Position numbers and translations under genes: made by a program
UHGV virus genome: UHGV-0109738
Origin: a virus
DNA: 64,000 bases
Strand: one strand, 5' to 3'
The notes under the pieces: model-generated
Database searches by the model: none
Told to the model about the DNA's origin: nothing
What the model saw: only the letters and a program-made list of their open reading frames with translations
Shown: in pieces, positions 57,711 through 58,829 of the stretch
How positions within the stretch are numbered: position 1 is the first letter of the stretch
How the letters are laid out: each line of letters opens with the position of its first letter

Positions 57711-58829
57711 ATGTCGCAAAGAAAAATCAGCGATGAGCAATTGATCGCTGAATATAACAACGGTTTAACGTACAAGCAGATCGCTGAAAAATATGGCATG
57801 TCAAAACGCAACGTCGAGCGGCTGGGCGCAAAGCTGGCGAAACGCGGTTTATTATCAACGCGCCGCGCCCCTGGTTTTGGCGTTACTGGTGAGTCGGTTC
57901 TTGTCGATAAGGATGGGAATACAGTCATGCGCTGGATTAAAACAGCCCGTGATCGCGATGAAATGGAAAGGCTAATGGAAGCGGCCCGCGACGCTTTCAC
58001 TGAAGAAATCCCACGCGCGGAGGCCGTGCCAGTGCCGGAAATTGATTTTCAAAAAAGCCTGGCCCTTTATCCGGTATTTGATCTGCATATCGGGGCGCTT
58101 GCTCATAAAGCTGAATGCGGCGAGAGTTACGACACTGGGATCGCTGAGCGCGTATTGAATGAATTCTTTGACTACGCTGTAGGCGCTGCGCCGATGTCTG
58201 AGAAAGCTGTTTTGCTTCTCGGTGGGGATGTTCTTCACACTGACGGGCTGTTGCCAGTTACGCCATCAAGCAATCACGTTCTTGATTGCGATTCGCGCTA
58301 TGCAAAACTTGTCTATGTAGCGATCAGGTCGGTCCGGCGGGCTGTCGGGAAGATGTTGTTAAATCATAGGGATATTGAAATCCAGGTACTATCAGGCAAT
58401 CACGACCAGTCTGGTATGATTTGGCTACGTGCTGCGCTGGCGGCTTTTTACGAAGATGAACCGCGCGTAACTGTTGATGTGTCCCCTGCTATCGTCCACC
58501 ACACACAGTACGGCAAAACATTCCTTGCTTACCACCACGGGCACACTATCAAAAAGCCGGAAAATTTATTGTCTGCTTGCGTAGCTGACTGGCGTGAGGA
58601 TTTCGGCAAGTCTGCGGCGGTTTACGCTCATTGCGGGCACTGGCACCATCAACGGCTGATTGAATCATCGCTAGGCGTTGTTGAGTATCACGGCACATTA
58701 GCGGGTAAAGACGCTTATTCAATTAATGGCGGCTGGCGGTCGCGGCGTCTGGCAGCGGTGATTATTTACAGCCCGGATCATGGGGAGATCGGGCGCTTTG
58801 TTTATTACCCTGAATATTCCATTTTGTAA
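57711..58829 (+). CDS. HTH plus calcineurin-like metallophosphoesterase domain protein
   Basis: N-terminal HTH (LTYKQIAEKYGMSKRNVER); metallophosphoesterase motifs D-L-H, GGDVLH, GNHD. Confidence 0.5.
   Translation: MSQRKISDEQLIAEYNNGLTYKQIAEKYGMSKRNVERLGAKLAKRGLLSTRRAPGFGVTGESVLVDKDGNTVMRWIKTARDRDEMERLMEAARDAFTEEIPRAEAVPVPEIDFQKSLALYPVFDLHIGALAHKAECGESYDTGIAERVLNEFFDYAVGAAPMSEKAVLLLGGDVLHTDGLLPVTPSSNHVLDCDSRYAKLVYVAIRSVRRAVGKMLLNHRDIEIQVLSGNHDQSGMIWLRAALAAFYEDEPRVTVDVSPAIVHHTQYGKTFLAYHHGHTIKKPENLLSACVADWREDFGKSAAVYAHCGHWHHQRLIESSLGVVEYHGTLAGKDAYSINGGWRSRRLAAVIIYSPDHGEIGRFVYYPEYSIL

Follow-up and report, generated by a model that had tools for sequence, protein, structure and literature searches.

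The virus genome UHGV-0109738, of which a stretch of 64,000 nucleotides (nt) was analysed here (hereafter referred to as the window), encodes a 372-residue protein that bears calcineurin-like metallophosphoesterase (MPE) motifs and whose gene lies within a phage replication module, directly in front of the gene for a DnaB-family helicase. What would such an enzyme do at this place? A preliminary description of the locus, made from the sequence alone, read the protein as a fusion of an N-terminal helix-turn-helix (HTH) with an MPE domain, called its role unclear, and offered replication, nucleotide-signal degradation or counter-defence. We find here that this gene is real, intact and conserved, that its product is securely placed in the calcineurin-like MPE superfamily, and that it belongs to PHROG 704, a large phage family whose gene company is that of DNA metabolism. 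We tentatively propose that the protein is an Mre11/SbcD-like DNA nuclease, and weigh this proposal against its rivals.

Gene, domains and catalytic core

The gene and the parts of its product are located as follows.

57697–57702, + strand: Shine–Dalgarno sequence GAGGAA, 8 nt 5′ of the ATG of the MPE gene (read from the sequence)
57711–58829, + strand: HTH–MPE gene of the PHROG 704 family (open reading frame list; 372 residues, ATG start)
57711–57875, + strand: putative N-terminal HTH domain, residues 1–55 (sub-threshold Pfam matches, AlphaFold2 helices, isoelectric point)
57876–58046, + strand: conserved β-hairpin and helix, residues 56–112, with invariant G69 and W75 (16-sequence alignment, AlphaFold2)
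58047–58826, + strand: MPE catalytic core, residues 113–372
58080–58088, + strand: motif I, D124-L-H126, invariant in both alignments
58224–58238, + strand: motif II, G172-D-V-L-H176, with G172 and D173 invariant and H176 nearly so
58257–58301, + strand: family-specific loop V183-T-P-x-S-x-x-x-L-D-x-D-x-R-Y197 (alignment), a candidate substrate loop
58395–58406, + strand: motif III, G229-N-H-D232, with G, N and H invariant and D232 nearly so
58536–58538, + strand: motif IV histidine, H276, invariant in both alignments
58635–58646, + strand: motif V, G309-H-W-H312, with G and both H invariant

In two alignments, one of 16 sequences at 25–96% identity to the query and a second of 56 sequences, the five-motif signature DxH ... 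GD ... GNH[DE] ... H ... GHxH is complete, and its motifs are invariant or nearly so. The three motifs named in the preliminary description (DLH, GDVLH and GNHD) are all present, H276 and G309-H-W-H312 being found besides, and the degeneracy that it had raised as a possible objection was not seen in any of the five, down to 25% identity. HMMER aligned motifs I, II and V with T. maritima Mre11/SbcD, in which they correspond to D-W-H, GDLLH and GHIH, respectively, and hhalign paired motifs II and III with GDVFD and GNHD of E. coli SbcD.

The AlphaFold2 model contains the two-sheet β-sandwich of the MPE fold. Foldseek against the PDB returned Mre11 proteins as its first nine matches (best E 1.5e-7), and the fold-comparison figures were 13.6 for S. 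aureus SbcD, 13.4 for MJ0936, 12.7 for both the Pol delta B-subunit and PolD DP1, 12.4 for Mre11, 12.1 for LpxH and 11.6 for Rv0805; nucleases are the top-ranked folds in both structure searches. Pfam Metallophos-type models did not match the protein even at E up to 1, so its superfamily placement rests on the motifs, the fold and PHROG 704; judged by sequence, the family is too divergent for these models. Two family-specific loops complete the core. In the loop of residues 183–197, T184, S187, L191, D192 and D194 are invariant and R196 and Y197 are also conserved, and the predicted local distance difference test score falls below 50 at residues 179–192; the second loop reads D334-A-Y336...G341-x-R343-S344-x-R346. 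The low AlphaFold2 confidence of both loops is as expected of flexible substrate-binding loops.

N-terminal to the core, residues 10–55 were matched by twelve Pfam HTH families with E values of 1e-3 to 0.1, HTH_23 (E 0.001) being the best and Rrf2, MarR and IclR being among the others, all under the gathering score. AlphaFold2 places three helices in this segment (residues 8–16, 21–28 and 32–44), which is basic (isoelectric point 10.3), and several homologs have a precomputed Sigma70_r4_2 or HTH_23 match. We consider the HTH plausible, and predict that it may bind DNA. The Campylobacter-phage homolog lacks it, as do some environmental homologs, and by sequence comparison it is an optional accessory domain within the family. 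The adjoining segment of residues 56–112, modelled as two strands (56–65 and 71–80) and a helix (82–98), is counted as part of the conserved enzyme module because it is kept in homologs that lack the HTH. The fusion architecture of the preliminary description was thus supported by the open reading frame, the AlphaFold2 model, the motifs and the PHROG 704 match, with the HTH remaining sub-threshold.

The gene also sits where it was said to sit, inside the replication module and immediately upstream of the DnaB-like helicase gene. Its stop codon occupies positions 58827–58829, the helicase ATG follows after a gap of 18 nt that contains AGGAGG, and a consensus scan found no terminator-like site between the two genes. 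Within a temperate-phage clade of 20 loci at ≥90% identity, the window included, the median ratio of non-synonymous to synonymous substitution rates (dN/dS) of the gene is 0.07; taken by region, the ratio is 0.045 (HTH), 0.14 (linker) and 0.06 (MPE core). All three parts of the protein are therefore maintained under purifying selection. A pseudogene or chance open reading frame was rejected because of this ratio and the thousands of homologs described below; the gene is real, intact and conserved.

The PHROG 704 family and its genomic company

The phrog_704 profile, named 'DNA repair exonuclease', matched residues 4–368 on profile positions 2–387 of 390 (E 1.1e-137); far-removed homologs in phages of Campylobacter and Vibrio are likewise matched by it. 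Homologs were found by tblastn in 2,043 phage records, 1,955 of which cover at least 80% of the protein. The carriers include T1-like Drexlerviridae, Jersey-like and JL1-like siphoviruses, N4-like and other Vibrio phages, T7-like Ralstonia phages and Campylobacter myoviruses; both temperate and virulent phages, with siphovirus, podovirus and myovirus morphologies, have members of the family. When 1.84 billion cluster representatives (50% identity) were searched with the family profile, 5,495 matched at E ≤1e-3 and 1,405 at E ≤1e-30; nearly all of the best 150 representatives have 370–420 residues and the same layout, without large fusions.

Several members already bear names. The T1 homolog gp16 (CPTT1_064; 58% identity) owes its label, 'exonuclease', to an HHpred match with SbcD (4LTY), TLS gp66 is named 'proof-reading exonuclease' (PMC11447400), and mEp044_10 of phage mEp044, 97% identical to the window protein, is a 'hypothetical protein'; one IMG/VR contig encodes a 100% identical copy, and NCBI names one homolog 'Rrf2 family transcriptional regulator'. 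T1 gp16, TLS gp66 and mEp044_10 share the layout of HTH, hairpin and MPE core, with all of the conserved motifs in common. All PHROG 704 names are annotation transfers, and the exonuclease label rests on remote similarity to SbcD. The MPE gene persists in 508 of the 522 Drexlerviridae (PMC13164509), which fits a core rather than an accessory function. The protein is, in short, a member of a known, annotated and experimentally untouched family, and would not surprise a specialist. In calling the role unclear, the preliminary description made the gene seem more isolated than it is, given a huge annotated family that includes T1 gp16.

The genes that surround PHROG 704 members vary among carriers. 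In T1, an SF2 helicase, a RecU-like resolvase and a Dam methylase precede the MPE gene, and an HNH gene and the lysis genes follow it. The order in Salmonella phage ST44 is a DUF3987 ATPase, a 150-residue open reading frame, the MPE, a primase on the opposite strand, an SF2 helicase, a 141-residue open reading frame, a DUF3799 protein, Erf and SSB, and that in the T7-like Ralstonia phage Reminis is a gp6-like exonuclease, endonuclease VII, the MPE, a PNKP-type phosphatase, a dATP/dGTP pyrophosphohydrolase, a small open reading frame and an ATP-dependent ligase. Campylobacter phages carry an HTH-less copy directly after DNA ligase, and a marine group has a DnaB_C-like helicase, a small open reading frame, a NinB fusion and then the MPE. 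In a count over 41 MPE lineages (80% identity), the genes up to three places away from the MPE included a PNKP-type HAD phosphatase in 11, a MazG-like dNTP (dATP/dGTP) pyrophosphohydrolase in 8, a dNMP-kinase-like protein in 5, and a DNA ligase and an HNH endonuclease in 4 each. No DnaB gene adjoins the MPE gene in T1-like, ST44, Jersey-like, N4-like or T7-like carriers, and the T1-like carriers (MPE at 55–71% identity) are without DnaB. The company of the family is DNA metabolism, and the family is independent of DnaB. The window copy differs from the T1-like copies, which stand between the helicase/resolvase/methylase block and the lysis cassette, in that it is carried by a temperate phage and keeps a constant position between the initiator and DnaB genes.

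Two further observations concern these neighbourhoods. Replacement of the T7 gp6 exonuclease by the MPE in T7-like carriers was considered and rejected, the phrog_107 exonuclease being still present there. A stand-alone PNKP-type HAD phosphatase (PF25109) repeatedly comes next after the PHROG 704 gene in unrelated lytic phages, followed by a dNMP-kinase-like protein or a MazG-like pyrophosphohydrolase (PF18909), sometimes with an ATP-dependent DNA ligase thereafter; this mini-cluster is recurrent and has no described joint function.

Candidate functions

The reading that we favour, though we grant it somewhat less than an even chance, is that the protein is a stand-alone, HTH-tethered phosphodiesterase dependent on two metals, namely a Rad50-independent Mre11/SbcD-like DNA nuclease for replication, recombination or repair. 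We infer DNA as the substrate, DNA binding by the HTH and the step of the phage cycle that is served. The basic N-terminal HTH would bring the protein to DNA; the MPE core, through D124/H126, D173/H176, N230/H231, H276 and H310/H312, would cut or trim DNA ends or branched or blocked intermediates; and the two conserved, flexible, arginine-rich loops (residues 183–197 and 334–346) would grip the substrate. The phage belongs to the mEpimmI group, whose members are temperate coliphages that depend on Nus (PMC11893012), and also encodes Erf, SSB, the anti-RecBCD protein Abc2, NinB, NinG and RusA. With its gene transcribed, as we suppose, together with those of the initiator and the DnaB helicase, the enzyme would probably process replication and recombination intermediates alongside these proteins, a set that an end-preparing or end-cleaning nuclease would suit. 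Among the roles offered in the preliminary description, DNA metabolism is thus favoured, and nucleotide-signal degradation and counter-defence are less supported.

Several findings weigh against this proposal. The NCBIfam SbcD model TIGR00619 gave E 0.16 and 11.7 bits against a cutoff of 77.65, a single-sequence search of the PDB returned nothing and the family profile reached T. maritima SbcD/Mre11 at E 0.29, and hhalign against the single E. coli SbcD sequence gave a probability of 3.7%. Mre11 and SbcD normally require Rad50 or SbcC, and no SbcC/Rad50-like gene was found in the window, whose largest open reading frames encode tail protein J, a tape measure protein and a tail protein, or adjoining any homolog in 176 loci. 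The HTH lies below the curated threshold in every library, and in the literature we found no functional or experimental study of any PHROG 704 member. The HAD phosphatase, MazG-like and dNMP kinase neighbours in lytic phages, moreover, mean that a nucleotide substrate fits too.

Those neighbours, which often adjoin the MPE in lytic phages, lend themselves first to the view that the protein is a small-molecule phosphodiesterase, acting either on cyclic mono- or oligonucleotide defence signals, as counter-defence, or on compounds of the nucleotide pool. The near-equal fold matches to MJ0936, LpxH, Rv0805, GpdQ and the Ap4A hydrolase SapH are consistent with this view. However, strong purifying selection on an HTH that is conserved and basic is hard to square with it, as are the nucleases that head both structure searches, and a gene that persists in the core and holds a constant position in DNA-metabolism modules is unlike typical anti-defence cargo; a PADLOC scan was also without a meaningful match. 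We regard a small-molecule substrate as unlikely, although it is the rival that survives best.

The same neighbourhood counts (PNKP-type phosphatase, MazG-like and dNMP-kinase-like genes) would also suit a DNase that degrades the host chromosome to mononucleotides for neighbouring enzymes to recycle to dNTPs, as in the host-DNA breakdown by T4 gp46/47 or T7 gp3/gp6. The linkage recurs in Drexlerviridae (PMC13164509), and a different phage MPE, A10ZJ24 gp48, destroys host DNA (PMC12287305). Yet the window phage is temperate, its gene lies in an early replication operon, and no nucleotide-salvage genes are near it in the window. T7-like carriers, for their part, retain a gp6-like exonuclease and endonuclease VII, and the MPE is therefore not their sole candidate DNase. 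Host-DNA salvage accordingly seems to us improbable, and slightly more so than a small-molecule substrate.

The immediate surroundings of the gene bear on a third possibility, suggested by the remark in the preliminary description that a loader or primase would be expected at this site.

55189–56580, + strand: initiator pair (Pfam and PHROG matches)
55189–55524, + strand: 111-residue winged HTH protein, the first gene of the pair
55528–56580, + strand: 350-residue Lin1244_N/DnaD-like replisome organiser (phrog_10469, phrog_5968)
55917–55958: four GGGTCATGA iterons at 11-bp spacing, inside the Lin1244_N/DnaD-like gene
56955–57677, + strand: GIY-YIG/T5orf172 homing-endonuclease-like gene with two DUF4379 zinc ribbons (Pfam, PHROG)
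58848–60269, + strand: DnaB-family replicative helicase, 473 residues (DnaB_C 1.6e-77; DnaB N-terminal domain 7.5e-12)
60288–60316, + strand: terminator-like hairpin directly 3′ of the helicase gene (consensus scan only)

A helicase loader or replisome scaffold, with the HTH on origin DNA and the MPE fold as a protein platform, would be in keeping with a gene between initiator and helicase, 18 nt from DnaB; the inactive B-subunits of eukaryotic polymerases are MPE folds that serve as such a platform, and SPP1-type modules have a loader gene between initiator and helicase. The MPE gene is upstream in 43 of 43 close helicase relatives in IMG/VR, but these form one tight clade at ≥92% identity, and the linkage therefore says little about functional dependence. 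The expectation itself was not supported: the nearest helicase relatives outside the phage group, of the P22 gene-12 type (56.5% identity), abut the initiator gene 18 with nothing between, a DnaD-like organiser is already in the module, and phages that rely on other helicases (T1-like, Jersey-like, N4-like and T7-like) have the family among their core genes. In contrast to scaffold MPEs, the protein has invariant catalytic residues; the protein shows no sequence or fold similarity to lambda P, DnaC/IstB, SPP1 G39P or DnaD-like loaders; and family-wide co-occurrence of the MPE with a DnaB-type helicase was not found. A loader is very improbable and, for the window, can be set aside; the gene is an ordinary one for phages. 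Least credible of all is a transcriptional regulator with the HTH as its working part and the MPE domain as a sensor or vestige, as the NCBI name on one homolog and the Rrf2, MarR and IclR matches might suggest: those matches are all sub-threshold, parts of the family do without the HTH, and the MPE core, with a dN/dS of 0.06, never varies in its metal ligands.

Returning to the DNA nuclease that we favour, a bolder version of it can be formulated, which we hold to be unlikely as it stands. PHROG 704 proteins would be phage-specific, Rad50-independent, HTH-guided end-cleaning nucleases that, with a PNKP-type 3′-phosphatase and DNA ligase, make up a phage break-repair route, coupled in the present phage to the DnaB replisome for fork restart. 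Phage genomes that host nucleases have cut or blocked would be rescued in this way, and a core gene of Drexlerviridae, shared with many other phages, would gain a biochemical role. Knowledge of what the family does would allow thousands of phage genomes to be annotated better, and could also reveal how DNA ends are processed in phages when there is no Rad50 partner.

Phage context and comparison with known systems

The gene order of the replication module is constant in all 20 temperate-clade loci: the initiator pair, a variable slot, the MPE, DnaB and a 187-residue MarR-like protein, with NinB further downstream. The slot 5′ of the MPE holds the GIY-YIG/zinc-ribbon homing-endonuclease-like gene in 8 loci, a Rha/KilAC antirepressor-like gene in 6 and a DUF559-like gene in 3; it is empty in 2, and 1 more locus ends at the contig edge. 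The window copy of the GIY-YIG gene contains a 177-nt tandem duplication (56961–57323, 83% identity). The slot is thus polymorphic between phages that are otherwise nearly identical and, as HNH genes are also neighbours of the MPE gene in phage T1 and in Vibrio and Jersey-like phages, the locus looks like a homing-endonuclease hot spot. The iterons, followed by an A-rich tract at 55964–56000, probably mark the phage replication origin, placed inside an initiator gene as is the lambda origin. The 5.4-kb replication module was found in 35 of 5,426 complete E. coli genomes.

Elsewhere in the window, the rightward operon (55189–63962) holds only replication genes and NinB and runs into the integrase gene (62736–63962, − strand). 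The genes at 44310–53400, which include Q (44310–45032), RusA, NinG, two DNA methyltransferases, Abc2 (52024–52302), SSB and Erf, read leftward (− strand), as do the lysis and structural genes. This layout is unusual for a lambda-like phage and agrees with the mEpimmI group (PMC11893012). A complete cytolethal distending toxin operon occupies positions 6793–9001 on the − strand:

8180–9001, − strand: cdtA
7362–8183, − strand: cdtB (Exo_endo_phos)
6793–7365, − strand: cdtC

At the DNA level, this operon and the cdt-I operon of Enterobacteria phage cdtI (AB285204) share 97.5% identity. Because it lies just past the tail-fibre genes, the prophage or its immediate flank carries the toxin. The low-GC stretch 1–6200 (GC 0.32 in 1–2000) encodes an H-NS-like protein (2881–3285), a RepL-like protein (672–1253) and DUF4756, DUF6404 and DUF6387 proteins, and may be a separate island or cargo beside the prophage. 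A 309-residue open reading frame at 9384–10313 (+ strand), which has no Pfam or PHROG match and in part overlaps the opposite-strand tail-fibre gene (9968–11767), may be spurious. Rfam and tRNA scans of the window were empty, and PADLOC found no meaningful defence-system match.

How, then, does the protein compare with characterized MPEs? The Pseudomonas putida MPE nuclease (6nvo), part of a bacterial Lhr helicase–MPE–Exo–ligase repair cluster, has 200 residues and no HTH, and shows a weak structural match and no detectable sequence relationship to the window protein. Lambda Ser/Thr protein phosphatase (nin221), the gene of which lies in the lambda nin region, is a calcineurin-like MPE too; a lambda-phosphatase-like or PPP-family protein phosphatase was nevertheless rejected, since the motifs differ and neither GDxxDRG nor GNHE is present. 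For the class III cyclic nucleotide (cNMP) phosphodiesterases CpdA and Rv0805, we know of no discriminating sequence feature. Mycobacteriophage A10ZJ24 gp48, an early MPE with all five motifs, is a phosphodiesterase that damages DNA (PMC12287305). By its description, it belongs to another MPE family, in Cluster A mycobacteriophages, has no reported HTH and disrupts the host genome as counter-defence. Compared with the PolD DP1 proofreading exonuclease and the eukaryotic polymerase B-subunits, the window protein lacks the DP1 OB-fold and the polymerase-binding parts, and neither this phage nor the T1-like phages encode a polymerase.

On the structural model, Mre11/SbcD appears to be the nearest solved kind, by a small margin. 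E. coli SbcD, S. aureus SbcD (7dog), M. jannaschii Mre11 (4tug) and T4 gp47 have a capping domain and a Rad50/SbcC-binding tail, both of which are absent here: only 60 residues follow motif V, as against 176 in E. coli SbcD, and AlphaFold2 shows core strands only in this region, leaving no room for either part. Conversely, the window protein adds the N-terminal HTH and the family-specific loops. E. coli SbcD itself matches phrog_100 (2e-27) rather than phrog_704, and in a library of viral structures a phage protein named SbcD ranks 48th. A true SbcD/Mre11 ortholog was therefore rejected, and PHROG 704, lacking the capping domain, the Rad50/SbcC partner and the SbcD profile match, is not a member of Mre11/SbcD. 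Collectively, PHROG 704 has end-healing, sealing and nucleotide-pool enzymes as recurrent neighbours, and is an MPE lineage separate from true SbcD/Mre11 that may nonetheless work like Mre11.

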